Below are positions 5,979 through 60,075 of a stretch of DNA of 64,000 nucleotides, one piece after another. The position numbers and the translations under genes were made by a program. Positions within the stretch are counted from its first letter, which is position 1, and the number at the start of each line of letters is the position of its first letter. The DNA comes from Christensenella sp. UBA6880. Its GTDB lineage: Bacteria; Bacillota; Clostridia; Christensenellales; CAG-917. Under the pieces are notes generated by a model. That model made no database searches, was not told the DNA's origin, and saw nothing but the letters and a program-made list of their open reading frames with translations. The DNA lies in assembly GCA_002449145.1 (NCBI GenBank), contig DKCG01000026.1, positions 82,608 to 146,607 of the forward strand, in the 5' to 3' direction.

Positions 5979-6002
5979 GAAACGAACACTCATTCGAAGC
6001 CT

Positions 6003-6530: not shown

Positions 6531-6619
6531 CTTTAATTTTATTTTTTTGCACTCGGCGCAAAGCAACAAAAAAACGCTCGCAAGTTTTGCTTGCGAGCGT
6601 TTCGATTTGTTTAATCAAA

Positions 6620-19291: not shown

Positions 19292-19885
19292 ATGAACAAG
19301 TTTTCAAATAACGTGATTCTCGCCTCGTCCTCGCCTCGCCGCAAGGAAATTCTTGCGGATATGGGCGTAAAATACGAGGTTATTCCCGCAAATATAGACG
19401 AGAGCGAGATAAAATCCCGTTTTCCGTTCTTGCTCGTCAAGAAACTTGCAAAAGCAAAGGCGGAACATATCGCAAAAGAGCATAGAAGCGACACGGTCAT
19501 CGCGGCGGACACAATCGTCGTGCTTGACGGAAAAGTGTACGGCAAACCGCACGACAGAACGCACGCTTTCGATATGATAAAGCAACTCAACGGACGCACG
19601 CACACCGTGTATACGGGCGTTTGCGTGACGTGCGAGGGCAAAAAGGTCGTGGCTTGCGTCAAATCGCTCGTCACTTTCAAAACCCTCACCGACGATCGGA
19701 TTTATGCGTATATCGACGACTGCAAGCCGTTCGACAAAGCGGGTGCATACGGGATTCAGGACAAAAGAATCGTGGAAAAATACAGCGGCAGTTACTCTAA
19801 CATAATGGGGCTGCCCAAAGAAAAACTCGGCGACATTCTCGTTCGAGTCGGAGTTATCAATGGCAACAATAGAACTATCGATTGA
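19292..19885 (+). CDS. maf: Maf-like nucleoside triphosphate pyrophosphatase
   Basis: Contains VILASSSPRRKEIL and AGAYGIQD motifs. The internal ATG at 19292 is taken as the start. Confidence 0.9.
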   Translation: MNKFSNNVILASSSPRRKEILADMGVKYEVIPANIDESEIKSRFPFLLVKKLAKAKAEHIAKEHRSDTVIAADTIVVLDGKVYGKPHDRTHAFDMIKQLNGRTHTVYTGVCVTCEGKKVVACVKSLVTFKTLTDDRIYAYIDDCKPFDKAGAYGIQDKRIVEKYSGSYSNIMGLPKEKLGDILVRVGVINGNNRTID

Positions 19886-20858
19886 CCTCGGAAGCAAGTT
19901 TATCACCATCTATCAAAAGGGCATAGGTCTCGTTTTGCGCGAGCCTGCAATCGCCATTGCGACCAAATCGCGCAACCGTCTCGAAATCCGCGACGCGGGG
20001 TACAGAGCGGAAAGCGTTATGACGGGTTCGCTCGGCGGCGCAAGAGTCATCGCGCCCATCAAGGAAGGCATAATCGTAGACGAAGAAATGGCGACTATGC
20101 TTCTTCATTACTTCCTCAAAAAGATTATCCCCGAAGGCATTTTTATGCCTAGAATCAAAGCCATCGTGTCCATTTGCGAATCCTCGTCGGGTTCGGACAG
20201 ACGTGCGGTGGAAAAGTGCTGCATAAAGGCGGGCATAAAGGAAGTCACGCTCGTGGAATCGGGTTTGAGCCTTCTTGCCTACACCAACAGCATAGGCGGT
20301 CTTTTCGTTGACATCGGCGGCGGCAAAACCGAAATATCCGCAGTCACCAATCACGGCATTGCGACGGGTTGCTCGGTCAATATCGCAGGCGACGCGTTCA
20401 ACAACGCAATCATAGATAGCCTTTATATGAATTACGGCGTAAAGGTGGGCGAATTTACAATCGAGAATCTCAAAAAATCCGCGCTTTCTTTCTACGTCAA
20501 CGACGAGGGCAGTTACGCCGTCAGCGGCGGCAGTGCGGACGGTTCGCCTCGTTCGCTCTACGTCACCGCAGAGCAAATGCGCGACGCCGTGATTCCGCTT
20601 GTGGACGACATCATCGAAGTCATAATGTCCGTCCTCAACCAAACGCCGCCCGAACTTTCCGCAGAGATACTTCGAAAAGGCATTTTCGTATCCGGCGGCT
20701 CGCTTCACATTCCGGGACTTATCGACTATCTCGAACAAGCGCTTGAACTTCCCGTCACGCCGCTCAAAGACATCGAGAACGCGATTGCAATCGGCGGCGC
20801 GAGATTCTTCGACGAAAAGAATCTGCTGTCTGATATGTTGGGGGTCAAATTGTATTAA
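19860..20858 (+). CDS. mreB: MreB/Mbl-like actin-fold rod-shape protein (divergent)
   Basis: The pattern IDLGSKFITIYQKGIGLVLREP...IAPIKEGIIVDEEMATMLLHYF parallels MreB, and it follows maf as in many Firmicutes. Confidence 0.7.
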   Translation: MATIELSIDLGSKFITIYQKGIGLVLREPAIAIATKSRNRLEIRDAGYRAESVMTGSLGGARVIAPIKEGIIVDEEMATMLLHYFLKKIIPEGIFMPRIKAIVSICESSSGSDRRAVEKCCIKAGIKEVTLVESGLSLLAYTNSIGGLFVDIGGGKTEISAVTNHGIATGCSVNIAGDAFNNAIIDSLYMNYGVKVGEFTIENLKKSALSFYVNDEGSYAVSGGSADGSPRSLYVTAEQMRDAVIPLVDDIIEVIMSVLNQTPPELSAEILRKGIFVSGGSLHIPGLIDYLEQALELPVTPLKDIENAIAIGGARFFDEKNLLSDMLGVKLY

Positions 20859-20863
20859 AGCGC

Positions 20864-21068
20864 GCTATTTGGCGAATAACTTTGGACGCGATTGACGCAA
20901 GCGTAACAATCGCTATTCCGTCACTTCGTTCCTTACAACGCCCTTTTGTTCACCCGTCACGTACGATTTAGTACGTTGGGCGGGTTCGCAAAAGGGCGTT
21001 TCCTTGTTCTTCATCTCAATAGTGCGCTTTAATGCAATTTGATGTCACTCATTCAAGGCGTACTTATC
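20864..21068 (+). repeat. composite repeat locus: 17-mer, rc52 block, H-type long hairpin, TTCTTCATCTCAATA box and x-block
   Basis: 20864-20880 equals 48888-48904. 20884-20936 is the reverse complement of 6326-6375. Arms 20937-20948 and 20989-21000 form a 12-bp stem. 21044-21068 resembles 5988-6010. Confidence 0.8.
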
Positions 21069-24108: not shown

Positions 24109-26817
24109 ATGAAAAGATTTAGATTGTTGGTAGTGTTATCACTATGCATATTGATTTGTTGCATATTGTGTGCTTGCAGTCCTAGCGATTCCGATTATGA
24201 TGACAGTAGTGTACAAAAATATAGTGTAACTTGGAAAAACTACGACGGCACGGTTCTGGAAAAAGATAGTGAAGTGGTATATGGAACAGTACCCGAATAT
24301 AACGGCATAACACCGACCAAACCGTCGACGGAACGCTATTCATATGCCTTCAACGGTTGGACACCGACAATCGTTCCTGTTACGGAAGATGTTGTTTATA
24401 CAGCGCAATTTGCCGAAACTACGAACACATATAGCGTAATCTGGGAAAATTATGACGGCACAATTTTAGAAAAAGATAATGAAGTGGCGTACGGAGAAGT
24501 GCCCGAATATAACGGCATAACACCGACCAAGCCATCAACAGGGCGGTATTCATACTCGTTCAACGGTTGGACACCGACAATTGTTCCCGTTACAAAAAAT
24601 GTTGTTTATACGGCACAATTCAACGAATCGACAAATACATATAGTGTAATCTGGAAGAATTATGACGGTACAATTTTAGAAAAAGATAACGAAGTGGCGT
24701 ACGGGGAAGTGCCCGAATATAACGGCATAACACCGACCAAACCGTCGACGGAACGTTATTCTTATGCGTTCAACGGTTGGACTCCGACAATTGTTCCTGT
24801 TACGGAAGATGTCGTTTATACGGCGCAGTTCGCAGAAACGATAAATACATATAGCGTAATTTGGAAGAATTATGACGGCACGATATTAGAAACTGATAAT
24901 GAAGTAGAATATGGGCTAATGCCCGAATATAACGGTGCGATGCCGATTAAGGGCGATGACGATATTTTCCGATATTCATTTATTGGCTGGGATAAAGAGA
25001 TTGCTCCTGTTGTGTCTGATATAATATATATTGCTCAGTTTTCCAGTGCATATAAAGAAGATTTTATATTTGAAACGGTTGGCAACAAATGTTTTTTAAA
25101 GAAATATGTTGGGGTAAACGAAAGCGTCGTTATTCCAAGTACATATCAAAACCATCCGGTTGTTTCGATTTTGTCAAATGCATTTGACAAAAAAGCGTGT
25201 GTAAAATCATTATACGTTCCTACCAGCGTTATTGAAATTCAGAAAAATGCTTTGAGCGGTTGTACAAATATAGAGCGGTTGATTCTTCCTTTTGTAGGCG
25301 ACGGCGCAGATATAGGATTTATCGGATATGTATTTGGCGCTGCAAATTATGAAGAAAACGCACAATGCGTTCCTTATTCGCTGTCATCAATAAGAATATA
25401 CAATGCGAATATTATTGCAAGTAACGCATTTTACGGTTGCAAATATTTAGAATATGTGGAAATTTCGGACGATATTACAAGTATCGGTGATGGTTGTTTG
25501 GCAGGTTGCGCGTCTCTTTCTAAAATGCGCTTGCCATTTGTCGGCGAATCATATAATAGCAAGAATTCATTTGGATATATATTTGGAACAAATAATTATT
25601 CTAATTCTCAAATCGTTTCACAAAACGGACAAATATTTTATATTCCGAATAGCCTTTCAGAAGTTGAAATTACAGGTGGATGTATATTGACAGGAGCGTT
25701 TGAAAATTGTGCTATGATTCAAAAAATAAGCATTGAACAAGGTGTTTCTATAATCGAGGAAGAATCCTTTGCAAATTGCAATTCGCTAAGAGAGATTTAT
25801 GTCGATTCGGCTGTGGAAATAAAAGCGTATGCATTTGCCAAATTGTGCAACCTTGAAAAAATAAAAGTGCCTATTCAGGATTATTCGTATAGCGATTCAG
25901 AATATTTGTGGACGTTATATCACATAGGTAGAATGTTTAATAAGGAAGAATATGGCGGATGCGATGCTATTACACAATCAAGTAAAGGAAAAGGAATAGG
26001 CAGTAATGCAGGCGTAGGTTCCGGCGGCGGAGGAACTTATTATATACCGACATCGTTAAAAGAAATTGTTGTAGATTGTAAAAACGATATTTTGGGTTAT
26101 GGGGCGTTAAGCGGTATTGCAAACGTTGAATTTGTTATTAACAATTGCACGGGCATCGCAGAGTATTCGTTGTCTCGAACGAGCATCAAAACATTTATCA
26201 TTCCGAAAGGATTGACAGAAATTCCAGAAGGCGCATTCAGTGAATGCGAGTTGTTGGAAAGTATAGTCATTCCTTATGGAGTGACTACAATACAAAATAA
26301 CGCTTTTAGGGGATGTATTTCATTGAAAACAATTGTTGTCCCTAAAACGTTATCAGGAATAGGTGAGCTAAGTTTTAGTGGTTGTAAATCGTTAGAAAAT
26401 ATAGATTTTATCAGAAACTGCGCAGAAGAATTTGTTATCGGAAGAAATGCATTTATTGAATGTACTGGGTTAAAAAAGTTGATTATTCCGAGCAATGTTT
26501 GTTCGATATATTATGGTGCTTTTGGCAACTGTTCGGAAATAAGCTCTGTTACTTTTGAGGACGGTTCAACTTGCGCATATATCGGCGGAGCTGCTTTTCA
26601 CGATTGTACAAAACTTGAATATGTAGTTATTCCTTCAAGTGCATTGACATTGGGAGAAAGTGTGTTTTCTGGTGACACATCATTAATTATATATGCAGAA
26701 TTTAATGAAAAACCATCAAGATGGGGTAATTATTGGAATAAGGATAACAATGCGGTTTATTGGTTATCAGAATGGAAATACGACGAATCGGGTTTTCCTT
26801 GTCCCAATAATGATTAG
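24109..26817 (+). CDS. surface lipoprotein with four 70-aa Listeria-Bacteroides-type B repeats and BspA-type leucine-rich repeats
   Basis: Lipobox LCAC-S. Repeats have the form YSVxWxNYDGTxLE...NGWTP...VYTAQF. LRR_5-like units such as IPxGVTTIQNNAFRGCISLKTIVVP follow. Confidence 0.8.
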   Translation: MKRFRLLVVLSLCILICCILCACSPSDSDYDDSSVQKYSVTWKNYDGTVLEKDSEVVYGTVPEYNGITPTKPSTERYSYAFNGWTPTIVPVTEDVVYTAQFAETTNTYSVIWENYDGTILEKDNEVAYGEVPEYNGITPTKPSTGRYSYSFNGWTPTIVPVTKNVVYTAQFNESTNTYSVIWKNYDGTILEKDNEVAYGEVPEYNGITPTKPSTERYSYAFNGWTPTIVPVTEDVVYTAQFAETINTYSVIWKNYDGTILETDNEVEYGLMPEYNGAMPIKGDDDIFRYSFIGWDKEIAPVVSDIIYIAQFSSAYKEDFIFETVGNKCFLKKYVGVNESVVIPSTYQNHPVVSILSNAFDKKACVKSLYVPTSVIEIQKNALSGCTNIERLILPFVGDGADIGFIGYVFGAANYEENAQCVPYSLSSIRIYNANIIASNAFYGCKYLEYVEISDDITSIGDGCLAGCASLSKMRLPFVGESYNSKNSFGYIFGTNNYSNSQIVSQNGQIFYIPNSLSEVEITGGCILTGAFENCAMIQKISIEQGVSIIEEESFANCNSLREIYVDSAVEIKAYAFAKLCNLEKIKVPIQDYSYSDSEYLWTLYHIGRMFNKEEYGGCDAITQSSKGKGIGSNAGVGSGGGGTYYIPTSLKEIVVDCKNDILGYGALSGIANVEFVINNCTGIAEYSLSRTSIKTFIIPKGLTEIPEGAFSECELLESIVIPYGVTTIQNNAFRGCISLKTIVVPKTLSGIGELSFSGCKSLENIDFIRNCAEEFVIGRNAFIECTGLKKLIIPSNVCSIYYGAFGNCSEISSVTFEDGSTCAYIGGAAFHDCTKLEYVVIPSSALTLGESVFSGDTSLIIYAEFNEKPSRWGNYWNKDNNAVYWLSEWKYDESGFPCPNND
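24220..25059 (+). repeat. in-frame 210-bp tandem repeat x4 inside the lipoprotein gene
   Basis: Units lie at 24220, 24430, 24640 and 24850. Units 1 and 3 are nearly identical at the protein level, and unit 4 has diverged. Confidence 0.85.
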
Positions 26818-27030: not shown

Positions 27031-27975
27031 ATGAAATACGTTGGCATTGACATCGGCGGTATGACCATAAAGGGCGGTATCGTTGACGAAAAGGGCAATA
27101 TCCTTGCAAGAAAAGTCGTCGTTACGTCCCCCGGTAAAGAGGATTATCTCATCGTGCAAGACATCGCAAACCTCATCGAGGATTTGACGAAAGACTGCAA
27201 AGACGAAATCGAGGGCATCGGCATAGGTTGCCCCGGTTCTATTTACGACGAAAAAGGCATCGTGCGCTATGCGTGCAACATCAATTTCCGCAACACCCCT
27301 ATGGCGAAAATGATTGCCGAAAAAACGCAGATTAAAAACGTAAAACTTTCAAACGACGCAAACTGCGCCGCACTCGGCGAAACGCTTTTCGGCGCGGGCG
27401 AGGGCGCGAAAAATTCCGTTATGGTTACGCTCGGCACGGGCGTAGGCACGGGCATAATCGCCGACGGCAGACTTATCACGGGCAATCGCTCGGCAGGTGC
27501 GGAAGGCGGACATATAACGATAAATCTCGGCGGCGCGACTTGCGGTTGCGGAAAGAAAGGTTGTTTCGAGGCGTACGCTTCGGCAACCGCGCTTATGAAT
27601 CAAATTCAATCCGCTTGCGAAAAGCACCCCGACAGTTTGCTTGCAAAAGAAGTCGAGGAAAACGGCAACAGCGGCAAAATCGTGTTTGATTGTGCAAAAG
27701 AAGGGGATAAAGTGGCGATTGCGGTTGTCAAACGCTACATCAAGTACGTCGGCATAGGTCTTGTCAACTACGCCAACATCTTTGCGCCCGAAGTCATAAT
27801 CATCGGCGGCGGAATCTCGAATCAAGGCGACAACATCATCAAGCCTTTGCAAAGATACGTTTCGAGAAACAAGTACGGCGCGGAATATACGCCCAAAGTC
27901 AAGGTCGTTGCGGCAACTCTCAAAAACGACGCAGGTATAATCGGGGCGGCCGCGCTGTGCATAAACCGTTGCTAA
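27031..27975 (+). CDS. glcK: ROK-family glucokinase
   Basis: IGIDIGGMTIKGG N-terminus, and the ROK zinc motif GGHITINLGGATCGCGKKGCFE. Confidence 0.85.
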   Translation: MKYVGIDIGGMTIKGGIVDEKGNILARKVVVTSPGKEDYLIVQDIANLIEDLTKDCKDEIEGIGIGCPGSIYDEKGIVRYACNINFRNTPMAKMIAEKTQIKNVKLSNDANCAALGETLFGAGEGAKNSVMVTLGTGVGTGIIADGRLITGNRSAGAEGGHITINLGGATCGCGKKGCFEAYASATALMNQIQSACEKHPDSLLAKEVEENGNSGKIVFDCAKEGDKVAIAVVKRYIKYVGIGLVNYANIFAPEVIIIGGGISNQGDNIIKPLQRYVSRNKYGAEYTPKVKVVAATLKNDAGIIGAAALCINRC

Positions 27976-28028
27976 GGCAACGGCAACACGCAAGCGTGCG
28001 TATTGCCGAGAGCCTTGCTAGGTTTCTG

Positions 28029-28264
28029 CACTACTAACCGCGCAAGCCCTCTTTACTCTCAAAATAAGACGGACAAAAACTCAAACCGCAATTCCGTGCG
28101 AGTGCTTGCTTGGTGGGTGCGCACTTCGTGCGCAAGCGGTAAATTTGAACGGCGGTTGGGCGCGACGCGTCAAACAATACATTCGGTGAATGTGTTGTAG
28201 CCAAAGCGAACGAGGCGGATTGCCTCGCAAACGCCGAAGTCCAAACACGTGAGGAAAGGGGAAG
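28029..28264 (+). repeat. repeat module T2, copy 1
   Basis: Aligns with 37726-37958 and 54056-54292. The 3' ~125 nt are nearly identical, and it ends GTGAGGAAAGGGGAAG. Confidence 0.85.
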
Positions 28265-28302
28265 CTTTTCTTAAAAAATATACAAACTACAACGATACGA
28301 AA

Positions 28303-32249: not shown

Positions 32250-32276
32250 ACCCAATATGTTATAATAATATAAGTT

Positions 32277-33300: not shown

Positions 33301-33426
33301 GCAATTATATTTGCCAAATAAGCAAAATCCGCAAAAAAAAAGCGGCGTTTTGCAAAAAAAAGAAGGAAAAGCCTTTTGGCGGTGCGGCTTAGAGTTTGAA
33401 ATTCGCTCTTTGCGCACAAATATTTG

Positions 33427-34965
33427 ATGAGAGAAGATTCAACAAAACTTAAACGCGCATTTTCCTTTGCGCAAGAGGGTATACGCAAATTTGCGTACAC
33501 CGATTTGTATATTTTGCTCGTTCTTGCAATAGTCGTGGCGGCGTGGATTTGGCAAAACGCAACGTTCGGTTTTGTCACGCTCATTCTCGTATCGTGTGCC
33601 GTTTTGGTGTTCTCGGACGATATTTTGCCGCTTTCGGTCAACGCTTTCGGCGCAATGCTTATGATTTTCAAAGCCGATGGCGAAGGTGCTATTGACATAA
33701 GCAGATTCTTTTATCTTTGGCCGACATTCATTCCGCTTGCCGTCGCAATTTTGATTTTCGTGGTCAGAAACACCGTCGCAAAAGTCAAAAACAAGCAGCG
33801 TTTCGTGCTCGGAAAGATGTTCTTTCCGCAAGTCGCGGTCAGCGCCGCGCTCTTGCTCGGCGGCGTGGGAACTATCGCGGCAAAGAATTATCTCACCGCG
33901 CTTCCCAACGTCATTGCGCTCGGCGTAGGCGTGCTTGCCGTGTATCTGCTCTTTGCAAACTTCATAAAAATCGACGAAAAAAGAGACTATGCAAAGTACT
34001 TTGCAAAGGTCGTTATGTGGATAGGCTTTGCCGTGTGCGTCGAAATGATTGTGCATATATCCCGCCTCGACATCAGTTCGCAAGACTGGTCTAAATGGTA
34101 CTGGGATTTAGGGTGGGGCAACCGCAACAATATCGCAACGTTCCTGCTCTTTTCCGCGCCTATGGCGATGTATTTGTCGACGAGGACGAGAAAAGGCTGG
34201 GCATACATCGTTATGGCGTTGTTCCAATACGCTTGCCTCGTTATGACCTTGTCGAGAGGCGGCATACTGTTCGGCGCGATTGCGGCGGTATTCGGCGTAG
34301 TTTTCTCGATTTTGAAAGCACCCAACCGCAAAACGCAAGCAACGATATGGGGCGTTGCAATCCTTGCCGCGCTTGTGATTTGCCTCGTAAAACTCGACCT
34401 CGTCAAAGGCATTATTTCGAGCCTTGCTGACAGAATAGACGCAGGCGGAAACGGCGACGTAACGTCGGGCAGATTCGCTCTTTACAAAGAGGCGTGGGAA
34501 CAGTTCGTAAAGCACCCGATTTTCGGCGCGGGTATGGGCTTTATCGGCACTCGCGACGGTCAGTTCCATTCGGAAAATATGAGCCAGTACTGGTTCCACT
34601 CGACGCTTTTCCAAGTGCTCGGCTGTATGGGTATCGTCGGTATAGCCGCTTACGTTTACTACTACGTCGTCCGCTTCGGAATCGTGTTCAAGGGTATGAA
34701 AAAGAATTGCAAATTCGCCTTTTTCGTGTTCGTTGCGTGGCTTGGATTCGAGGGCTATTCTATGATAGACACCGGTACTATGATTCCGTTCCCGAATATG
34801 ATGTTGGTTGCGGTTATGTCCTATATAGCGCAACTTGCCAACTTGCAAAGAAGCGAGAGCGAAATCGACGGCGTTCCGAACTCTCTACTCAACGAGGTAT
34901 ACGTGCGAGATACCGGAATCGACGTAGTGAGAGTTGATGCTAAATTAATAATTAATAATGAATAA
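33427..34965 (+). CDS. O-antigen ligase/polymerase (Wzy_C) family membrane protein
   Basis: Polytopic protein. The LSRGGILFGAIAA loop region and the periplasmic-type loop with FHSENMSQYWFHS are typical of this family. The last codons lie inside repeat module A. Confidence 0.75.
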   Translation: MREDSTKLKRAFSFAQEGIRKFAYTDLYILLVLAIVVAAWIWQNATFGFVTLILVSCAVLVFSDDILPLSVNAFGAMLMIFKADGEGAIDISRFFYLWPTFIPLAVAILIFVVRNTVAKVKNKQRFVLGKMFFPQVAVSAALLLGGVGTIAAKNYLTALPNVIALGVGVLAVYLLFANFIKIDEKRDYAKYFAKVVMWIGFAVCVEMIVHISRLDISSQDWSKWYWDLGWGNRNNIATFLLFSAPMAMYLSTRTRKGWAYIVMALFQYACLVMTLSRGGILFGAIAAVFGVVFSILKAPNRKTQATIWGVAILAALVICLVKLDLVKGIISSLADRIDAGGNGDVTSGRFALYKEAWEQFVKHPIFGAGMGFIGTRDGQFHSENMSQYWFHSTLFQVLGCMGIVGIAAYVYYYVVRFGIVFKGMKKNCKFAFFVFVAWLGFEGYSMIDTGTMIPFPNMMLVAVMSYIAQLANLQRSESEIDGVPNSLLNEVYVRDTGIDVVRVDAKLIINNE

Positions 34966-34997
34966 TTAATAATTGCGGGTGGGGTAAACCCCACACC
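34943..34997 (+). repeat. repeat module A, copy 2
   Basis: The sequence is AATTAATAATTAATAATGAATAATTAATAATTGCGGGTGGGGTAAACCCCACACC. It supplies the C-terminal ...LIINNE and the stop of the upstream CDS. Confidence 0.8.
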
Positions 34998-36069: not shown

Positions 36070-37677
36070 ATGAAAGACAAAAAGACGGAAAAAAGAGGCA
36101 TATTTTCGGGTTTACGCAAAGAGTTTTGCGCTTCCGATACGAAAAAGCACGACGAGGCGAGCCTCGCCGAGTTGCTTTGCGAGCACGACAAAAACAAAAT
36201 CGTGCCTTTTCATATGCCGGGGCATAAACGCGAGGATTTCGATTTTCTAAACGGCGCGCAAAAAATCGACATAACCGAGATAGAGGGCTTCGACAATCTC
36301 AACGACGCAAACGGAATCATATTGCAATCCGAAAAACTTGCGGCAGAGGTGTTCGGCGCAAAGCACGCAAGATTTTTGGTGAACGGAAGCACGGGCGGCG
36401 TTCTGGCGGCGATTCGTACGGTTTGCAATGCGGGCGACAAGGTTTTGATTGCTCGCAACTGTCATAAGTCCGTGTACAATGCGGTGGAAGTGTTCGGCTT
36501 GGTTCCCGTCTACGTTATGCCGTCCTATTTCGAGGAATACGGCTTTTACGGCTCGGTTTTCCCTTGTGACGTAAAAAGAGCGTTCGAGCAAAATCCCGAC
36601 ATAAAACTCGTGGTGATAACTTCGCCCACGTACGAGGGAATCGTCAGCGACGTAAAATCAATCGCGGATATATGCCGCAAAAACGGCGCGATTTTGTTCG
36701 TCGACGAGGCGCACGGCGCACATACCGGACTTTACAAAAAGTTCGGCGAAAGCGCGAGAAGTCTCGGCGCGGACATGGTTGTGAACAGTTTGCACAAGAC
36801 GTTGCCGTCGCTTACGCAAACCGCGCTTTTGTGCGTTTGCTCGGATAGAGTGGACACAACCGAACTCGACCGCAATCTTGCGATATTCCAAACCAGTTCG
36901 CCCTCGTACGTCCTTATGGCTTCCATCGACGGTTGCGTGAGAATGCTCAAAAACGACGGCGCGAAATTGCTGTCCGAGTGGAACAAGAATATCGACGATT
37001 GCAAAAAGTCGCTTGAAAGACTAAACAAACTTTCGATTTTCCAACCGAAAAAAGATTCGCGAGTTTTTGCCTACGACAAGTCGAAATTCGTCGTGCTATG
37101 CACGGGCGGCGCAATAAGCGGCATTGAACTCAAAAAGGTTTTGCGAAACGCATACGACATAGAACTCGAAATGGCAAGCGTAAACTACGCAATCGCAATG
37201 AGCGGCGCAGGGGATACCAAAGAGAATTTTTCCGCCCTCGAAAGCGCGTTGTTTGCAATCGACGACACGCTTGCTTCACGCAACGGTTTGACTACGACGG
37301 TTTTGCCGTCATTGCCGAAAAAGGCGTTTGAACCCTATCAAACACGCACTTTAAGTGGCGAATACGTCGATTTCGACAAATCGTCGGGCAGAGTAAGTCT
37401 TGAAAACGTATGGGTATATCCGCCCGGCTCGCCCGTCATCGTCAAAGGCGAAGAAGTGTGTCAGGAAGATATAAAAAATCTTACTTTGATGTACGAAAGC
37501 GGCGTAAGCGTATCGAGCGAAAAGCGAGAATTTCCGACATACCTTTATGTCGCAAAAGCCTGTAACGAAGACGGAACACGAGCCGCAACGGCGGCGAGCC
37601 ATTGCTCAAACAGCGTTGCGGCAAAGTCAATCGCCCAAGTCGTCATTCCGAGCGAAGCGTGGGAATCCCCTAAATAG
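36070..37677 (+). CDS. PLP-dependent Orn/Lys/Arg decarboxylase family protein, with the last ~36 aa encoded by repeat DNA
   Basis: FHMPGHK and SLHKTLPS (PLP-Lys) motifs. From about nt 37569 onward the frame runs through the T1-type repeat sequence. Confidence 0.8.
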   Translation: MKDKKTEKRGIFSGLRKEFCASDTKKHDEASLAELLCEHDKNKIVPFHMPGHKREDFDFLNGAQKIDITEIEGFDNLNDANGIILQSEKLAAEVFGAKHARFLVNGSTGGVLAAIRTVCNAGDKVLIARNCHKSVYNAVEVFGLVPVYVMPSYFEEYGFYGSVFPCDVKRAFEQNPDIKLVVITSPTYEGIVSDVKSIADICRKNGAILFVDEAHGAHTGLYKKFGESARSLGADMVVNSLHKTLPSLTQTALLCVCSDRVDTTELDRNLAIFQTSSPSYVLMASIDGCVRMLKNDGAKLLSEWNKNIDDCKKSLERLNKLSIFQPKKDSRVFAYDKSKFVVLCTGGAISGIELKKVLRNAYDIELEMASVNYAIAMSGAGDTKENFSALESALFAIDDTLASRNGLTTTVLPSLPKKAFEPYQTRTLSGEYVDFDKSSGRVSLENVWVYPPGSPVIVKGEEVCQEDIKNLTLMYESGVSVSSEKREFPTYLYVAKACNEDGTRAATAASHCSNSVAAKSIAQVVIPSEAWESPK

Positions 37678-37958
37678 AAACGAAAACTTTTTGGCGATTG
37701 ATAACAACCGCACTTGTTTTCGCAAGCACTAACCGCGCAGAGAATTTGAGCTATCAGTTCAAGCACGGATAAGAACTCAAACCGCAATTTCGCCAAATTA
37801 TCTGCTTGGTGCAGCGCACTTCGTGCGAAAGCGGTAAATTTGAACGGCGGTAGGGCGCGACGCGTTAAACAACACATCCAGTGAATGTGTTGTAGCCAAA
37901 GCGAACGAGGCGGATTGCCTTGCAAACGCCGAAGTCCAAACACGTGAGGAAGGGGGAA
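37569..37958 (+). repeat. composite repeat: T1 5' fragment, hairpin block (GTCATTCCGAGCGAAGCGTGGGAATC) and T2 copy 2 (37726-37958)
   Basis: 37570-37600 matches the T1 5' block, and 37726-37958 aligns with the other T2 copies. Confidence 0.85.
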
Positions 37959-37971
37959 ATGTGTTAAGTTC

Positions 37972-38000
37972 TTGACAAAGCCGATACAAAACAATATAAT
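37972..38000 (+). promoter_or_regulatory. candidate promoter of the SCIFF operon
   Basis: TTGACA (37972-37977), a 17-nt spacer, then TATAAT (37995-38000). GAAGGAG is the SD before the ATG at 38031. Confidence 0.6.
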
Positions 38001-38030
38001 AGTATATATTAACAGAAGGAGTCGTAAACA

Positions 38031-38177
38031 ATGAAAAGAATCACAACTTTGAAAACACGCGATCTCAACGAGAGCAAAAAGAACGGCGGCTGTGGCGAAT
38101 GCCAAACCTCTTGCCAATCTGCTTGCAAAACTTCCTGCGGCGTTGCAAACCAAAAGTGCGAAAAGGCTGCAAAGTAA
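38031..38177 (+). CDS. SCIFF (six-cysteine) ranthipeptide precursor, 48 aa
   Basis: MKRITTLKTRDLNESKKNGGCGECQTSCQSACKTSCGVANQKCEKAAK. It is not in the ORF track because it is shorter than 60 aa. It has a strong SD and lies directly upstream of the maturase. Confidence 0.9.
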   Translation: MKRITTLKTRDLNESKKNGGCGECQTSCQSACKTSCGVANQKCEKAAK

Positions 38178-38210
38178 TTTTTGGCAAAATCACAACTTAT
38201 TCGCAAAGAT

Positions 38211-38236
38211 CGCATAGGCTGTCCTATGCGTTTTTT
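38211..38236 (+). terminator. intra-operon attenuator/terminator hairpin after the precursor gene
   Basis: Stem CGCATAGG / CCTATGCG with loop CTGT, followed by TTTTTT. Confidence 0.65.
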
Positions 38237-38302
38237 GTGTAAAAACGCAAGCGTTGCGACGTTTCGATTTTATAGCGAGCGGCAACGCGAGAGATAAGAC
38301 AA

Positions 38303-39682
38303 ATGATTCATTCTTTCAAACTTAACGGATACAATATCGTGCTCGATACGGCAAGCGGAAGCGTGCATAGCGTGGACGACGTAGCGTACGACGTCATAAA
38401 CTCGTACGAGGACAAAAGCAAAGAGCAAATCGTCAAAGACGTGGTTGCAAAGTACGAAAACCAAGGCGTTTGCGAGCAGGACGTAATCGAGTGCATAGAC
38501 GATGTAGAGGAATTGAAGGCGCAAGGCAAACTCTTTTCCGAAGACACGTTCAAGCCCGACGTCGACGTTCTTGCAAAACGCAATACCGTGCTTAAAGCGA
38601 TGTGCTTGCACGTTGCGCACACTTGCAACCTCAACTGCGAATATTGTTTCGCATCGCAAGGCAAATATCACGGCGAGCGCGCGCTTATGTCGTACGAAGT
38701 GGGCAAACGCGCTCTCGATTTCCTCGTCGAAAACAGCGGAACGCGCCGCAATCTCGAAGTGGACTTCTTCGGCGGCGAACCGCTTATGAACTGGCAGGTT
38801 GTCAAAGACCTCGTGGCATACGCTCGTTCGATAGAGAAAGAGCACGGCAAAAACTTCCGCTTTACGCTCACGACCAACGGTATGCTCGTTGACGACGACG
38901 TAATCGAATTTGCCAACAAGGAAATGGACAACGTCGTTTTGTCTCTCGACGGCAGAAAAGAGATAAACGACCATTTCAGACACACCATAGGCGGCGTGGG
39001 AAGTTACGATATAATCGTGCCGAAATTCCAAAAATTCGTCAAAGCGAGAGGCGGAAAAAACTACTATATGCGCGGCACGTTTACGCACAGAAATCCCGAC
39101 TTCACGAAGGATATTCAAACTATGCTCGACCTCGGCTTCGACGAGTTGAGTATGGAACCCGTCGTATGTCCGCCCACCGACAAGTACGCGCTCGACGAGG
39201 ACGACAAAAAGGTCATCTTCAAAGAGTACGAAAAACTTGCCGATATGATGATTGAAAGAAGAAAGCAGGGCAAACCCTTCACGTTCTATCACTATATGCT
39301 CAACCTCGAAGGCGGTCCGTGCATATACAAGCGTATATCTGGCTGCGGAAGCGGCACGGAATATCTCGCCGTAACGCCCACCGGCGAACTCTATCCTTGC
39401 CATCAGTTCGTCGGCAACAAAGAGTATCTTATGGGCGATATATGGAAGGGCGTCACGAACACGGAAATTCAATCCAAGTTCAAAAAGTGCAACGCATATT
39501 CGAGAAAAGAGTGCGACGAGTGCTGGGCAAGGCTGTATTGCTCGGGCGGTTGCGCGGCGAACGCATACAACGCCACGGGCGACGTGAACGGCGTTTACAA
39601 GTACGGTTGCGACCTTTTCAAAAAGCGTATCGAATGTGCGATAATGCTCAAAGTGGACGAGCAACTCGGTGAGGAAGAATAA
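38303..39682 (+). CDS. SCIFF radical SAM/SPASM thioether-forming maturase
   Basis: CNLNCEYCF radical-SAM motif and C-terminal SPASM cysteines (CDECWARLYCSGGCAANA). It is adjacent to the SCIFF precursor. Confidence 0.9.
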   Translation: MIHSFKLNGYNIVLDTASGSVHSVDDVAYDVINSYEDKSKEQIVKDVVAKYENQGVCEQDVIECIDDVEELKAQGKLFSEDTFKPDVDVLAKRNTVLKAMCLHVAHTCNLNCEYCFASQGKYHGERALMSYEVGKRALDFLVENSGTRRNLEVDFFGGEPLMNWQVVKDLVAYARSIEKEHGKNFRFTLTTNGMLVDDDVIEFANKEMDNVVLSLDGRKEINDHFRHTIGGVGSYDIIVPKFQKFVKARGGKNYYMRGTFTHRNPDFTKDIQTMLDLGFDELSMEPVVCPPTDKYALDEDDKKVIFKEYEKLADMMIERRKQGKPFTFYHYMLNLEGGPCIYKRISGCGSGTEYLAVTPTGELYPCHQFVGNKEYLMGDIWKGVTNTEIQSKFKKCNAYSRKECDECWARLYCSGGCAANAYNATGDVNGVYKYGCDLFKKRIECAIMLKVDEQLGEEE

Positions 39683-43310: not shown

Positions 43311-43570
43311 ACTTATAAACGGAATGTGCTAATTCGCAGACGGAACGCGAGCCGCAAGGCGGCGAGGAAGCGAGCGTCGAGCTTGACGGATAGTACAAGT
43401 GAACGGGCGAGTGTGGATTTTTTCGCCCGTGAACGAGTGGCATAACAAGAGAACGATACTTTTCTATGCGAGCACCGAGTGTTGCCCCACGCAGAGCGGA
43501 CGCCGTGGGTTCCCTCAAAGTATGCAGAGGGGGAACGGCGGTAGGGGAAACACGTGAGGAAGGGGGAAAG
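43311..43570 (+). repeat. repeat module T1, diverged copy ending in the T2-type terminus
   Basis: It shares ACTTATAAACGGAATGTGC..GCAGACGGAAC.CGAGCCGCAAGGCGGCGAG and GAGAACGATACTTTTCTATG with the other T1 copies, and ends CACGTGAGGAAGGGGGAAAG. Confidence 0.8.
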
Positions 43571-43614
43571 TTCAAATTCAAGTATCTTATTAAAGTAAAG
43601 GAATAGCGTATAAA

Positions 43615-46086: not shown

Positions 46087-48903
46087 ATGAGTATCGACAA
46101 AATTTACATCAAAGGCGCGAGGGAAAACAACCTCAAAAACATCGACCTAGAAATACCGCGCGACAAACTCGTCGTGTTCACGGGATTGAGCGGAAGCGGC
46201 AAATCGTCGCTTGCGTTCGACACCATTTTTGCGGAAGGACAAAGACGTTACGTCGAAAGCCTTTCCAGTTACGCGCGTATGTTCCTCGGTCAAATGCAAA
46301 AACCCGACGTGGACTACATCGAAGGTCTTTCCCCCGCCGTTTCAATCGACCAAAAAACGACCTCGCACAACCCTCGCTCGACCGTGGGTACGGTGACGGA
46401 AATTTACGACTATTTTCGCTTGCTGTTTGCAAGAATCGGCACGCCGCATTGCCCCAAGTGCGGACGTGAAATCGAACGTCAAACGGTTGACCAAATCTGC
46501 GACAAGATTATGGAAAGAGAGGGCTCAAAACTTCAACTTCTCGCACCCGTCGTGAGAGGTAGAAAGGGCGAGTACCGCAAGGAACTCGAACAATTCAAGC
46601 GCGCGGGCTACGTCCGCGTAAGGGTGGACGGGGTGAACTACACCCTCGACGAGGAAATAAAACTCGACAAAAACGTCAAGCACAACATAAGCGTGGTTAT
46701 CGACAGAATCGTGGTTAAGGACGGTTCGCAACGCCGCATATCCGATGCAATCGAAAACGCGATAAAACTGTCCGAAGGGCTTGTGATTGCCGACTTCGAC
46801 GGCGAAGAAGTGCTTTATTCCACGAAGTACGCTTGCCCCGATTGCGATTTGAGTTTCGAGGAACTCACGCCGAGGTTGTTCTCGTTCAACAATCCGTACG
46901 GCGCGTGTCCCGAATGCGGCGGACTCGGATTCCGCAACGAAATCGACGTAAATCTGCTCGTCACCGACTGGAACAAATCCCTCAGAGAGGGCGCGATAAA
47001 GGTAAGCGGCTGGGACGCGGGACATATGTCGCAAATGCAGTTCAGGGCGCTTTCGCAAGCGTACGGATTTTCTCTCGATACGCCGATTAAAGACTTGCCG
47101 CAAAATATCCTCGACATCATCTTTTACGGCAACGACGGCGACCGTATTCCTATGGAATACAACTCGCGCACGTTCAGTGGTTTCTACAAGGCGAGTTACG
47201 AGGGCGTTGCGAGAAACCTTATGCGCCGATTCAACGAAACGGACAGCGAACTCATAAAGAACGAGATTTCCAAGTATATGAAAGAAGTGCCTTGCTCCAA
47301 GTGCGGCGGAAAGAGGCTCAAACCCGAAGCCCTCGCAGTCACGATTGCGGGCAAGAATATATACGAACTCACCGAGATGTCCATATCGAAACTCAAAGAC
47401 TTTATGCAGTCTCTTACGCTCACCGACACGCAACATCTTATTGCGGACAGAATTATCAAAGAGATTTGCGCAAGGCTCGACTTTTTGATTAACGTAGGAC
47501 TGGATTATCTAACTCTTTCGCGTTCGGCAACCACTTTGAGCGGCGGCGAGTCGCAACGAATCCGCCTTGCAACCCAAATCGGAAGCGGACTTACGGGCGT
47601 TTTGTACATTCTCGACGAGCCGAGCATAGGCTTGCACCAAAAGGATAATCAACGCCTTTTGCAATCCCTCAAAAATTTGCGCGATATAGGCAACACTCTC
47701 ATCGTCGTCGAACACGACGAGGAAACCATACGCAGTGCGGATTATATCGTCGATATAGGCCCGGGCGCGGGCGTACACGGCGGCAACGTCGTTGCGCGCG
47801 GTAGCGTCGAGGACGTCATAAAGAGCAAGGACAGCATAACGGGCAAGTATCTGAGCGGCGAACTCTCGATACCCGTTCCCATTGCAAGACGCTCGTCAAA
47901 CGGCAAGTCAATCGTCATAAAGGGCGCAAGACAAAACAACCTCAAAAACGTTGACGTCGAGATTCCGCTCGGCGTATTCAACTGCGTAACGGGCGTGTCG
48001 GGCAGCGGCAAATCCTCGCTCGTCAACGAAGTGCTTTATCCCGCGCTTTCAAACGCGCTTATGCGCTCGAACGTCAAACAAGGCAACTACGACAGTATCG
48101 AGGGCATCGAAAACGTGGACAAGGTCATTTGCATAGACCAAAGCCCGATAGGCAAAACGCCTCGCTCGAACCCCGCAACGTATACGGGCGTTTTCGGCGA
48201 TATTAGGGAACTGTTCGCAACCCTTCCCGATTCCAAAGCGAGAGGCTACACCGCGGGCAGATTTTCCTTCAACGTCAACGGCGGCAGATGCGAGCATTGC
48301 GGCGGCGACGGCATAATCAAAATCGAAATGCACTTCCTTCCCGACGTGTACGTTCCTTGCGAAGTCTGCAAGGGTGCAAGATACAACCGCGAAACCCTCG
48401 AAGTGCGCTACAAAGGCAAAAATATCAGCGACGTGCTCGATATGACAATCGAGGAAGCCACCGAGTTCTTTGCCAACATACCCAAAATCAAAAACAAAAT
48501 CAAAACCCTCAACGACGTCGGTCTCGGCTACGTCAAACTCGGTCAGTCCTCAACCACTTTGAGCGGCGGCGAAGCGCAACGCGTCAAACTCGCAACCGAA
48601 CTTTCTCGCCGTTCCACCGGCAAAACCGTCTATATCCTCGACGAACCGACGACCGGACTTCACACCCACGACGTTGCCAAACTCATCACCATTCTCGACC
48701 GTCTCGTCGAGCAAGGCAACACCGTCGTCGTTATCGAGCATAATCTCGACGTCGTCAAAGTTGCCGACAACATCATCGACCTCGGACCCGACGGCGGCGA
48801 CCGCGGCGGAACGATAGTCGCGCAAGGAACACCGGAAGAGGTTGCACTTGTGGCTCGTTCATACACCGGTCAATTCCTTAAAACCGTGCTATTTGGCGAA
48901 TAA
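46087..48903 (+). CDS. uvrA: excinuclease ABC subunit A
   Basis: [23 protein letters not shown], two ABC modules ([16 protein letters not shown]) and zinc-finger cysteines. Confidence 0.95.
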
Positions 48904-49165
48904 CTGCGTCAATAAATGTGCGTATTAGCAGACGGAACACGAGCCGCAAGGCGGCGAGCCTATGAGCGCCGAACTTGACGGACAGTACAAGCGACTGCGC
49001 CGTCTGTTGGCCACTGCCTGGCGCACAAAGCGCAGTGGCATAATGAGAGAACGATACTTTTCTATGTGAGTGCCGACTTCCCCTCTTGCGAACGATGTGC
49101 AATATTGTAGAAAATTGGCGTAGGTTTGAGCAATAGGGGAAAGCCCGAAGGGAAGGGGTGATGTG
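48888..49165 (+). repeat. 17-mer left block (48888-48904, containing the uvrA stop) plus compact repeat module T1 (48915-49165)
   Basis: GCTATTTGGCGAATAAC is identical to 20864-20880. The T1 body is near-identical to the shared blocks of 6003-6464. Confidence 0.85.
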
Positions 49166-49229
49166 TTTTTTTTGGGTACACGATGAACACTCGTGTATAA
49201 AAAGAAACGAATATGAAGAGGGTAACTCT

Positions 49230-53914: not shown

Positions 53915-53947
53915 AAAAATCCTCGCAAACTTGCGAGGATTTTTTTT
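53913..53947 (+). terminator. rho-independent terminator of the ABC operon
   Basis: Stem TCCTCGCAA / TTGCGAGGA followed by TTTTTTTT. Confidence 0.75.
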
Positions 53948-53952
53948 CAGTG

Positions 53953-54292
53953 AATTAATAATTAATAATTTAGGGCGGGGCACAAGCAAAAATCATCGCA
54001 GAGGTGATGACAATGCACATAAATGTGAATTGTCAAAACCTCGCTTGATTTATTGCTCTACTAACCGCGCAGAGAATTTGTGCTATCAATTCAAGTACGG
54101 ATAAAAACTCACGCCACAATTTCGCCAAATTATCTGCTTGGTAAAAGCGTGCTATGCACGCAAGCGGTAAATTTGAACGGCGGTTGGGCGCGACGCGTTA
54201 AACAACACATTCGGTGAATGTGTTGTAGCCAAAGCGAACGAGGCGGATTGCCTCGCAAACGCCGAAGTCCAAACACGTGAGGAAGGGGGAAG
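53953..54292 (+). repeat. repeat module A (short copy, 53953-53983), spacer, and repeat module T2 copy 3 (54056-54292)
   Basis: AATTAATAATTAATAATTTAGGGCGGGGCAC, then a T2 body aligning with 28029-28264 and 37726-37958. Confidence 0.85.
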
Positions 54293-54411
54293 TTTTATTT
54301 AAGATTTTAGTTAGAATGCAAACTTTAAGGCAAAGATATAAGACTTTACAAATATTTATAAAAATGTTAATATATAATATCATAAAATAATTGTGGGCGC
54401 GCGTTGCGCAT

Positions 54412-58534: not shown

Positions 58535-59848
58535 ATGAAAGTTTGCAAATTCGGCGGCACTTCTATGGCGAACGGCGAAACAATTTCCCGCGTGATAGAC
58601 GTCATAAAAAGCGACCCGCAAAGAAAATATATCGTCGTTTCCGCACCGGGGAAACGCAACAAAGCAGACGTCAAAGTGACGGACGCGCTTTATGCGTGCT
58701 TCAACGAAAAAAAAGAAAAAGGCAACTGCACGCAATCTTTCGAGGTTATAAGAAAACGCTTCAAGGACATCGTGTCCGCTCTCGATCTCGACTTCGACAT
58801 AGACCCCGTTCTCGACGAGGTAAAGGCAGGCATAGACAACAGCGTATCAAGCGACTACGCCGCTTCGAGAGGGGAATACCTCAACGCGCTGATTTTGGCA
58901 AAAAAGTTGGGATTCGAGTTTATCGACACCCAAAATATCGTGAAATTCAACGGCGAAAAACTGCAAATGCACTATTCGCTCGACCTCATAAAACAGAAAC
59001 TCGACGGGGTGGAATACGCCGTTATCCCCGGCTTTTACGGCTCGAATCAAGACGGCAGAATCACCACTTTTTCGCGCGGCGGCTCGGATATTACGGGCGC
59101 GCTCGTCGCACGCGCCGTCGGGGCGGACGTCTACGAAAACTGGACGGACGTCGACGGCTTTTTGACCGCCGATCCGCGTATCGTGGACGATCCCGAAATC
59201 ATCGATTATTTGAGTTATCGCGAACTTCGCGAACTTGCGTATATGGGCGCGGAAGTCTTGCACCCCGAATCCATTTTCCCCGTCAGAAGCGTGGGAATCC
59301 CCATCAATATCAAAAACACGTTCAATCCGTCCCACAAAGGCACTATGATAGTGGCGGAAAAGAATCTGCCCAAAGAAAAGAAGGTCATAACGGGTATCGC
59401 CGGCAAAAAGGGATTTACGATTATCAATATCGAAAAAGATATGATGAATTCCGAAATCGGCTTCGGCAGAAAGGTTTTGTCCGTTCTCGAATTTGAGGGT
59501 ATCTCGTTTGAACACGTTCCGTCGGGCATAGACACGCTTTCCGTCGTAATCCGTGACGAGTACATCGCGGGCAAAATGCAAAAAGTGCTTGCCGCGCTTC
59601 AAGAATCCATCAACGCCGACAATATCGAGATACACAGCGGACTTTCGCTCATCGCCACCGTCGGACACAATATGACCTCGCGACAAGGCACTGCCGCAAT
59701 GCTTTTCACCGCGCTTGCCGACGCCAACGTTAACATTCGTATGATTGACCAAGGATCTTCGGAACTTAACATTATCGTGGGGGTGGATACTTTTGATTAT
59801 GAGCGTGCCGTCAACGCCATTTACCAAACCTCACTAAATCGCGCCTAA
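58535..59848 (+). CDS. lysC: aspartate kinase
   Basis: N-terminus KVCKFGGTSMANGE, kinase core, and C-terminal ACT domains. Confidence 0.9.
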   Translation: MKVCKFGGTSMANGETISRVIDVIKSDPQRKYIVVSAPGKRNKADVKVTDALYACFNEKKEKGNCTQSFEVIRKRFKDIVSALDLDFDIDPVLDEVKAGIDNSVSSDYAASRGEYLNALILAKKLGFEFIDTQNIVKFNGEKLQMHYSLDLIKQKLDGVEYAVIPGFYGSNQDGRITTFSRGGSDITGALVARAVGADVYENWTDVDGFLTADPRIVDDPEIIDYLSYRELRELAYMGAEVLHPESIFPVRSVGIPINIKNTFNPSHKGTMIVAEKNLPKEKKVITGIAGKKGFTIINIEKDMMNSEIGFGRKVLSVLEFEGISFEHVPSGIDTLSVVIRDEYIAGKMQKVLAALQESINADNIEIHSGLSLIATVGHNMTSRQGTAAMLFTALADANVNIRMIDQGSSELNIIVGVDTFDYERAVNAIYQTSLNRA

Positions 59849-59990
59849 CTTTGTCAGAGACACCCGCCTGTCAACTCATTTACGATTAGTAAATTAGGGT
59901 TGCCATTCGGGTGTCTCTTTCGCGTTATGCATCGATTTAGAGAGGTTTGGGACGTTAAAAAATTTCGCGTTCTTCATCTCAATATCGAGG
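59824..59990 (+). repeat. H-type repeat: ~127-nt nested hairpin plus a GCGTTCTTCATCTCAATA box, overlapping the lysC 3' end
   Basis: Outer arms CCAAACCTCACTAAATCG (59824-59841) and CGATTTAGAGAGGTTTGG (59933-59950). Inner arms AGAGACACCCG / CGGGTGTCTCT. The box at 59967-59984 matches 21004-21021. Confidence 0.75.
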
Positions 59991-60044: not shown

Positions 60045-60075
60045 CAAAAAAAAGCACTCGACGAGTGCTTTTTTC
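60045..60075. terminator. bidirectional terminator
   Basis: A-run, AAGCACTCG-A-CGAGTGCTT, then a T-run. Confidence 0.7.

Follow-up and report, generated by a model that had tools for sequence, protein, structure and literature searches.

Repeat-derived ends of protein-coding genes, including a predicted 38-residue extension of a decarboxylase-like protein, in an uncultured gut Clostridia lineage

Introduction

How does the reading frame of a conserved enzyme come to end in repetitive DNA, and is such a gene end an isolated case? The question is raised by a 64,000-nucleotide stretch of Christensenella sp. UBA6880 (Bacillota; Clostridia; Christensenellales; CAG-917; assembly GCA_002449145.1, contig DKCG01000026.1, positions 82,608 to 146,607 of the forward strand), hereafter the window, in which the open reading frame (ORF) of a decarboxylase-like gene runs into a repeat. 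A first-pass annotation had placed the 3′ ends of four genes within repeats, namely those of the decarboxylase, an O-antigen ligase (Wzy), uvrA and lysC, and had proposed insertion at or into gene 3′ ends with tolerated replacement of the C-termini. All four overlaps are present, and all involve real repeats, as judged by self-comparison of the window and by comparison with loci fetched from related genomes (L numbers below). Comparison with orthologs, the check proposed with the annotation, shows that homology ends where the repeat begins in each of the four genes. The genome, from a clade of uncultured gut Clostridia, is densely populated by structured repeats that do not code for protein and occur in many copies; at least two sorts can be told apart, which are designated T and H. 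The elements most probably settled at stop codons, and deletions at the junctions would then have fused the reading frames to the repeats.

Results

The decarboxylase-like gene and its C-terminal tail

The locus comprises the following features:
36070-37677, + strand: decarboxylase-like ORF of 535 aa, pyridoxal phosphate-dependent ornithine/lysine/arginine (Orn/Lys/Arg) decarboxylase family
36070-37560, + strand: native part, codons 1-497, colinear with the 494-498-aa orthologs to LYVAK plus one residue
37561-37677, + strand: predicted element-coded tail CNEDGTRAATAASHCSNSVAAKSIAQVVIPSEAWESPK, codons 498-535 (C498-K535), and TAG stop, inside repeat DNA
37972-38177, + strand: perfect consensus promoter TTGACA-17-TATAAT (37972-38000) and SCIFF peptide gene (38031-38177)

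Membership of the decarboxylase family is indicated by Pfam matches to OKR_DC_1 (E=2.8e-57) and OKR_DC_1_C (E=2.1e-6), both above the gathering scores. No substrate class is assigned, every NCBIfam equivalog scoring far under its cut-off. The sole Pfam match near the tail stops at residue 469. Among the 120 homologs listed, all cover 84-93% of the query and never more than 93%, and the ten closest are 492-498 aa long, the top one having 498 aa and 95% identity. The aligned orthologs all end one or two residues past LYVAK (with V, SE or other residues before the stop, at 497-498 aa), while the window protein continues for 38 residues that are absent from every 494-498-aa ortholog. The first-pass annotation had derived about 36 residues and the stop codon from the element; the origin stands, and the length is corrected to 38 (C498-K535) by comparison with the 497-aa orthologs. 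An AlphaFold model of the 535-aa protein, computed from a 10-sequence alignment, has a mean pLDDT of 47 and is too poor to judge the tail.

The boundaries of the repeat are defined by two loci, L001, which encodes the best decarboxylase match, and L002, which are syntenic with the window over 13 kb. DNA homology to the empty-site allele ceases at 37557-37560 (at 37557 for L001) and picks up again at 37963, at the sequence GTTAAGT shortly 5′ of the promoter of the SCIFF gene. In L001, the 19 nt GAATAAAACACGCTTCTAC stand in place of about 402 nt (37561-37962) of the window, and the two loci thus form an empty-site/filled-site pair. Taken together with the protein alignment, the tail is a predicted 38-aa extension derived from the repeat. 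The region downstream (38031-39682) encodes a 48-aa SCIFF-type peptide with six cysteines, which is identical in L001, followed by a radical SAM maturase.

The repeat unit at the decarboxylase locus

The repeat is organized as follows:
37561-37962, + strand: 5′-truncated T-family mosaic repeat, in place of the 19 nt found in L001 and L002
37566-37600, + strand: fragment of the common T 5′ module, CGAAGACGGAACACGAGCCGCAACGGCGGCGAGCC, with a 1-nt insertion; same junction and insertion in L120-L123
37601-37727, + strand: middle module including the hairpin GTCATTCCGAGCGAAGCGTGGGAATC (37642-37667), present in L050, L051, L036, L122 and L123
37728-37958, + strand: T2-type 3′ domain ending ACACGTGAGGAAGGGGGAA, 89-91% identical to 28069-28263 and 54060-54291

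The T1 5′ block (37570-37600) and the hairpin block (37642-37667) each gave one exact match, with none expected by chance. In a self-BLAST of the window, 37566-37600 pairs with the 5′ module of T1 at 6027, 43335 and 48927, apart from the 1-nt insertion that gives CAACGG where other T1 copies have CAAGG, and 37728-37958 is 89-91% identical to T2 at 28013-28274 and 54039-54302. The hairpin block, described earlier as repetitive, occurs once in the window and is repetitive only across genomes (L050, L051, L036).

The unit had been interpreted as a composite assembled from a T1 fragment, a hairpin and a T2 element, an interpretation that two other loci of CAG:238 (L050 and L051) contradict. Both carry the same T1-fragment/hairpin/T2 arrangement, 93% identical over 395 nt, preceded by a complete 5′ leader that consists of module A (NAATAAT heptamers), a GC hairpin and GAAACG..TTCGAAG, and continues with ACTTATAAACGGAATGTGC..TTCGAAGACGG. 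Since these units have a full 5′ leader, the window copy at 37561 is 5′-truncated; it is without about 110 nt, a by-eye estimate from the alignment, that correspond to module A, its hairpin and the leader. The segment 37561-37962 is thus best described as a single, truncated member of a recurrent subfamily, and not as a local chimera of T1 and T2. The hairpin GTCATTCCGAGCGAAGCGTGGGAATC is also found in reverse orientation (GATTCCCACGCT.CGCTCGGAATGAC), about 90 nt downstream of T 3′ ends, in L041, L062, L092, L103 and L105; its presence in these other metagenome-assembled genomes (MAGs) suggests a separate module with a wider distribution.

Allelic states of the locus across strains

The 90%-identity cluster of the decarboxylase has 291 members; among the 15 listed, most have 497 aa, two have 498, two have 535 and one has 518. 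As the annotation had advised, the loci were compared across strains, and at least four allelic states exist within this one cluster, including polymorphism between near-identical strains:
Empty site: L001, L002 and L124-L126; protein of 497-498 aa
Reverse T1 beginning a few nt past the stop: L083, L127 and L128; protein ending AKV
Forward fused composite: window, L122 and L123; protein of 535 aa
Forward fused T1/T2 hybrid: L120 and L121; protein of 518 aa ending AKARNEDGTRAATAASKSNAELDG

In L009, a relative further removed, the site is occupied by a T2 in reverse orientation. The exact 535-aa protein is public (NCBI and ENA) on two contigs, the longest of 194 kb, and the fusion is present in six independent assemblies from different samples, which indicates that fused alleles are tolerated in natural populations. 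Both fused types have a common junction, GCAAAAGCC followed by T or C and GTAACGAAGACGG, together with the rare CAACGG insertion, which points to one fusion event and a later exchange of the element interior. Between the fused alleles P0121 and P0131 there are 16 differences in 496 positions, but the junction is the same, and P0121 is only three positions away from an unfused allele. Because fused alleles lie on different gene backgrounds, the junction has persisted and recombined. The tails of the two fused alleles diverge after AATAAS. In L120 (2616-3251), the gene downstream of the T element differs and is not SCIFF, either because copies of the element recombined and rearranged the locus or because the assembly was joined through the repeat.

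Further genes with repeat-derived ends

The other three genes end in the following elements:
34943-34995, + strand: module A at Wzy, (NAATAAT)n, TG and GC hairpin; the Wzy_C ORF (33424-34965) stops six codons inside, reading KLIINNE
58535-59848, + strand: lysC, with the left H arm (59824-59848) encoding the end QTSLNRA
48879-48911, + strand: solo left H arm TAAAACCGTGCTATTTGGCGAATAACTGCGTCA, from which uvrA (46087-48903) takes its final residues and stop codon

The Wzy ORF stops at 34965 within module A, as had been proposed; the module (34943-34983) is 97.6% identical to 5926-5966. The window protein ends in VRVDAKLIINNE, and that of L001 in VRVNGLH. L001 carries module A at the same site, and its ORF stops with GLH-TAA at the left edge of the module. 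The window and L083 are missing 10 nt at the junction of gene and module with respect to L001, and the frame consequently reads KLIINNE within module A.

In lysC, the last codons do overlap the arm of a hairpin, 59824-59848 being the left arm of the hairpin at 59824-59950. Among the homologs listed, 119 of 120 differ at the end from the window, most having AIY, then H, F or N, then A or S, then F. The end AIYQTSLNRA is found in the window and in one 97%-identical homolog, with loss of the native HAFK end. The orthologs L129 and L130 keep their native ends (AFK or FTN), and their TAA stop is the first triplet of H. The window arrangement corresponds to that of L129 and L130 minus the 13 nt CGCCTTCAAGTAA, which lie between TACCA and AACCTC.

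The proposed source of the uvrA stop is likewise borne out: an exact second copy of the 17-mer at 48888-48904 lies at 20864-20880, and the sequence is found at about 22 further loci in related genomes. UvrA homologs end in SYTGQFLK, one residue of D, K or G, I or V, and L, with 0-4 residues thereafter. The window ends in KTVLFGE, a 97%-identical ortholog in KGVLNRA and a 91%-identical repeat-free ortholog in KDILK. The occurrence of an LNRA tail on two unrelated proteins, LysC and UvrA, shows that it originates from the repeat. A T1 copy (48915-49182) lies directly downstream of the solo arm. NCBIfam alignments that reach to within three residues of both C-termini had suggested that uvrA and lysC were unaffected, a reading that the comparison of ortholog ends overturned. 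A megablast search of uvrA against plasmids found no match.

A fifth case in the window is a ROK-family gene (27031-27975), which ends in LCINRC and has its stop codon in the loop of CCGTTGC-TAAG-GCAACGG (27962-27996); its relatives end in LCM where there is no repeat (L021) and in LCMN where module A is present (L095). The C-terminal replacement envisaged earlier is tolerated and takes two forms: a predicted extension of 38 aa in the decarboxylase, and predicted swaps of 3-7 aa in Wzy, LysC and UvrA.

The H hairpin element

Copies of H in the window:
59824-59950, + strand: complete H, covariance model score 125.6 bits
59965-59994, + strand: right arm left over from another copy of H, TTTCGCGTTCTTCATCTCAATATCGAGGTTTT
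20853-21033, + strand: H that begins at the stop (TAA) of an MreB-like gene (19860-20858) and encloses a T1 fragment in reverse orientation (20884-20936)

The 17-mer of uvrA, GCTATTTGGCGAATAAC, and the arm at lysC, CTAAATCGCGCCTAAC, had been listed as separate features; they are variants of the left arm of one H family. H measures 126-132 nt and occurs about 27 times in the fetched loci. When aligned, 18 copies give a nested hairpin of 45 pairs, 33 of which show compensatory double changes, with invariant unpaired motifs (GCG..TAAC, GTCA and GTT.T.CATC). The covariance model built from this alignment recovers two full copies in the window, 59824-59950 and 20903-21032, and scores the + strand far above the - strand. 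The left arm starts with TAAAAC and offers TAA in two frames. In 18 of 24 copies this initial TAA terminates, in frame, an ORF of 88-982 codons, whereas the background for TAA triplets in general is 7% (P~1e-16), so that H clusters at stop codons. The ends of H are complementary within a copy and vary and covary between copies. TA flanks most copies, and pairing often continues for a further 1-11 nt; because TA is self-complementary, a target duplication is indistinguishable from an extension of the stem.

At the MreB-like site (20853-21033; L073 2806-2953, - strand), the outermost stem runs 11 nt into native coding sequence, TCAAATTGCAT-TA-ATGCAATTTGA. The relatives L021 and L081 encode the same VKLY end by other codons and carry other H variants. 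The reverse strand of H (for example, window 59935-59897 and 21011-20980) contains a short ATG frame of the pattern M-x-N-x-E/K-(E)-T/A-P (MKNKETP.., MHNAKETPEWQP and MDNEEDAPEWQP, the last two followed by a stop), the conserved start of which probably reflects the invariant GTT.T.CATC motif. Searches of Rfam 15 returned no match for the window at gathering thresholds and only chance-level matches in relaxed scans of T and H; L035, L093 and L019 yielded an L21 leader only.

T elements: copies, modules and distribution

Further T copies in the window:
5926-6540, + strand: full-length T1-type element with module A at the 5′ end; T1 part 6003-6540
43311-43577, + strand: T1 copy; L001 has module A and T2 3′ fragments there instead
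48915-49182, + strand: T1 copy, from self-comparison
28013-28274, + strand: T2 copy 3′ of the ROK-family gene, from self-comparison
53939-54302, + strand: module A-like tract and T2 copy; T2 at 54039-54302, weaker module A copy at 53939

T elements are mosaics of about 270-620 nt with a conserved 3′ domain ending GGAAGGGGGAA. The full layout comprises module A with its hairpin, a leader, the common 5′ module, variable middle hairpins and the 3′ domain. Every T1 and T2 copy of the window lies on the + strand and, with the exception of 48915-49182, ends in ACACGTGAGGAAGGGGGAA. Full T elements usually have module A at their 5′ end. The module offers TAA in each of the three frames, and at least seven gene contexts show a long ORF that terminates 0-19 nt into it. 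Middle hairpins are swapped between copies, and hybrids with a T1 5′ part and a T2 3′ part occur. Some covariation is seen in the T1 3′ domain. Single-sequence folds of T1 and of the unit at the decarboxylase gave weak z-scores (-2.4 and -1.3, respectively), so that comparative analysis alone is informative. The one clean filled/empty pair for T is L001 1782-2150 versus window 32250-32254; the T1 insert begins immediately behind the TAA with which the gene upstream ends, and no clean target duplication is visible.

A scan of species-representative genomes with the 3′ motif returned at least 117 stretches in about 14 MAGs of uncultured gut Clostridia, which include, among the matches listed, CAG:475, CAG:238, UMGS1042/1170/1331, HGM11462 and Hadza MAGs. 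Many matches lie at contig ends, as expected of multi-copy repeats. Several repeat-bearing MAGs (L020, L024, L034, L041, L062, L095, L102, L012 and others) are labelled Bacteroidaceae, Phascolarctobacterium succinatutens, Anaeroplasmataceae or Actinomycetota. L095 and L102 are 90-95% identical to the Clostridia window over kilobases, and the labels or bins look wrong.

In many T copies, one or more additional tandem units of about 65 nt (..TTTAGAGTACACGCCG..ACTCTTGTAGAGGAAGAAC AAAACACGTGAGGAAGGGGGAA) extend past GGAAGGGGGAA, as in L113, L061, L082, L030 and L016 and at 6440-6540 of the window. T1 is joined directly to a partial left arm of H in L001 (TAAAATGC..GAGCGAAT.., 1782-1816) and in the window (TAAAACCGTGCTATTTGGCGAATAACTGCGTCA, 48879-48914), which suggests that the two families nest or recombine with each other. 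Coding by T1 was rejected, since its small ORFs are not conserved: three copies show MC and a stop, an ORF of 20 aa and an ORF of 34 aa. ARAGORN found no tRNA or tmRNA in the window. The sequence ACACGGAAUGU resembles the consensus obtained by systematic evolution of ligands by exponential enrichment for CsrA-type GGA sites, which T might conceivably carry, and no argument is built on this likeness.

Two tandem arrays of another kind complete the description of the window. At 24219-24935, a 210-nt unit is repeated three times (84% identical) within a 902-aa ORF (24109-26817) for a repeat-containing protein, and at 14672-14752 five 15-nt units (CGAAAAYRCNGNNRC-like) lie in the region of a short minus-strand ORF (14631-14945).

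Discussion

Probable route to repeat-derived gene ends

The evidence is best accounted for by a two-step route. T and H elements would arrive at or beside the stop codon of an upstream gene; a small deletion at the gene-element junction would next take out the stop, leaving the ORF to end a few codons on, in the 5′ portion of the element, which is rich in stops. In the decarboxylase, a forward T would have lost its first ~110 nt (the by-eye estimate) along with the stop of the gene, most likely by such a junction deletion. As the deletion would have reached the interior of the element, where the frame is open, the ORF reads 38 codons to a TAG. Smaller junction deletions in Wzy (10 nt) and lysC (13 nt) would have had the same effect, and uvrA probably followed likewise. 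We consider this sequence of events probable, with deletion as the inferred mechanism. Insertion at gene 3′ ends, as first proposed, is consistent with the preference of both T and H for the stops of upstream genes; for entry into the coding ends, the 10-nt and 13-nt differences favour later deletions at the junction instead. The tails themselves may be neutral passengers.

Several observations weigh against this route. No decarboxylase allele was found in which an intact stop is followed by a forward, full-length T, so that the case for a deletion step at this gene is argued from the parallel of Wzy and lysC. Elsewhere, T copies combine variable 5′ ends with a constant 3′ end, a pattern that also fits insertion of 5′-truncated copies. 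No transposase partner was seen in about 0.9 Mb of related loci, a limited sample searched for multi-copy ORF families and widely spaced H arms, and mobility consequently rests solely on presence/absence polymorphism.

In the alternative that takes up the second of these points, T was copied from its 3′ end, often stopping short, and entered the last codon or stop already 5′-truncated. Varied 5′ starts with a constant 3′ end are seen in L007, L084, L098, at uvrA (48915) and at the decarboxylase (37561), isolated and tandem 3′ fragments exist (L001 12976-13147), and 3′ motifs outnumber 5′ motifs by 137 to 34, although this count is biased because the loci were chosen by the 3′ motif. Yet Wzy and lysC are explained by deletions of 10 and 13 nt with respect to alleles already holding the element, neither a reverse transcriptase nor another enzyme partner was seen in the ~0.9 Mb of loci, and mosaicism and recombination between copies (L120 versus the window) can also give variable 5′ ends. 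Direct truncated insertion is therefore regarded as unlikely.

T and H could also be functional parts of host RNAs, such as 3′-UTR (untranslated region) stabilisers, terminators or protein-sequestering small RNAs, the gene fusions being side effects. The strong compensatory covariation and invariant unpaired motifs of H, the covariation in the T 3′ domain and the co-orientation of seven of seven window T copies with genes are in line with this proposal, and the A-tract and U-tract ends of H, read directly from the sequence, resemble a bidirectional terminator. However, an intrinsic terminator scan called neither H nor T, and called a separate, canonical terminator for lysC at 60047-60075. The same site varies between near-identical strains in presence, subfamily and orientation of the element; truncated and nested copies exist, many copies lie at contig ends, a signature of high copy number, and there is no constant gene partner. 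Compensatory changes also occur in REPINs, which are replicators (PMC3116915). A host RNA function as the primary explanation thus seems improbable.

An adaptive role for the tail, as a C-terminal module newly gained by the enzyme, is very unlikely: fused alleles persist and have spread over gene backgrounds (P0131 and P0121, with 16 differences in 496 positions and the same junction), but they differ past AATAAS and so share no conserved tail, no Pfam match extends beyond residue 469, and most alleles of the cluster are tail-less. A chimeric assembler join inside repeat DNA can be practically ruled out, for although the repeats break these assemblies, many matches lie at contig ends and L120 runs into a different downstream gene, the gene side of the junction is unique, the junction is identical in six assemblies, and the exact 535-aa protein occurs on two contigs (the longest of 194 kb).

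Comparison with known systems

The closest precedent is found in Coxiella burnetii, in which the small non-coding repeats QMITE1 and QMITE2 reach 1-50 bp into the 3′ ends of ubiB, mutT, recN, ruvB and other housekeeping genes (PMC5896051). In the Dugway strain, EnhC has a 33-aa C-terminal extension owing to an indel that links the gene to QMITE2, which in another strain lies behind the stop codon (PMC5896051). This is the same event as that proposed for the window genes. QMITEs have been described with terminal inverted and direct repeats, whereas T elements are without terminal inverted repeats, and Coxiella belongs to a different phylum. The event is therefore of a known kind, and the repeat families T and H are newly catalogued.

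H resembles REPINs, which are hairpin-forming doublets with common compensatory changes, mobilised by RAYT transposases and placed randomly in extragenic space (PMC3116915). Like them, H forms a long hairpin outside genes, about 100-130 nt in length and with symmetric arms, which recurs many times in a genome and shows compensatory changes in the hairpin doublet (33 of 45 pairs in 18 copies). Unlike REPINs, which are not reported to be stop-anchored, H has three or four stems, invariant internal loops and an embedded stop codon. No RAYT surfaced among ORFs of at least 130 aa in the sampled loci, and no whole-genome search with a Y1 profile was made.

[quoted passage not shown] H shares with them a size of about 100-155 nt and complementary, TA-flanked ends, often within CTAG- or NTAN-like palindromes. 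The arms of H, however, vary and covary between copies, whereas a terminal repeat recognised by a transposase stays constant. A search for a related autonomous insertion sequence found no spaced pairs of H arms, no multi-copy ORF family and no IS630-like gene in the limited sample of about 0.9 Mb.

T can be compared, by description, with the pneumococcal BOX elements and the enterobacterial BIMEs, which are mosaic repeats. The likeness is confined to modularity, with fixed 5′ and 3′ modules and a variable interior; T is larger and has the AT-rich, stop-rich module A.

H was also considered as an integron attC site, being a structured, sequence-variable hairpin directly after an ORF with, in some copies, GCCTAAC, which matches the inverse core RYYYAAC. 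This assignment was rejected: most copies have GAATAAC and GTTCTTC, the latter misfitting GTTRRRY, AAC and GTT are internal, and a stem of about 18 bp lies outside them. In addition, H copies are single and dispersed behind housekeeping genes, in contrast to the cassette arrays of attC sites.

A more speculative proposal, which we hold to be quite unlikely, is that H, and perhaps module A or T, is a structured replicator that homes to stop codons, targeting the TA of the stop and regenerating TAA with its own first base. If so, related strains would acquire different subfamilies at the same stop independently, and the copy-specific outer stem, which in one case complements native coding sequence over 11 nt, would be the trace of an insertion chemistry in which the flank is copied inverted. 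Such a chemistry is not known to have been described.

Implications

These data indicate that, in a common lineage of uncultured gut bacteria, the C-termini of proteins are reshaped by densely spaced small repeats. At least five genes in 64 kb end in repeat-derived codons, and the alleles differ between strains. In such genomes, gene callers and pangenome tools will list "variant" proteins that are spurious, assemblies break at the repeats, and the labels of MAGs of the clade are inconsistent. With 75% of its copies anchored at stop codons and heavy covariation, H offers a clean natural system in which the choice of stop codons as targets can be set against selective filtering, and it is equally suited to asking about effects on translation termination or mRNA fate.

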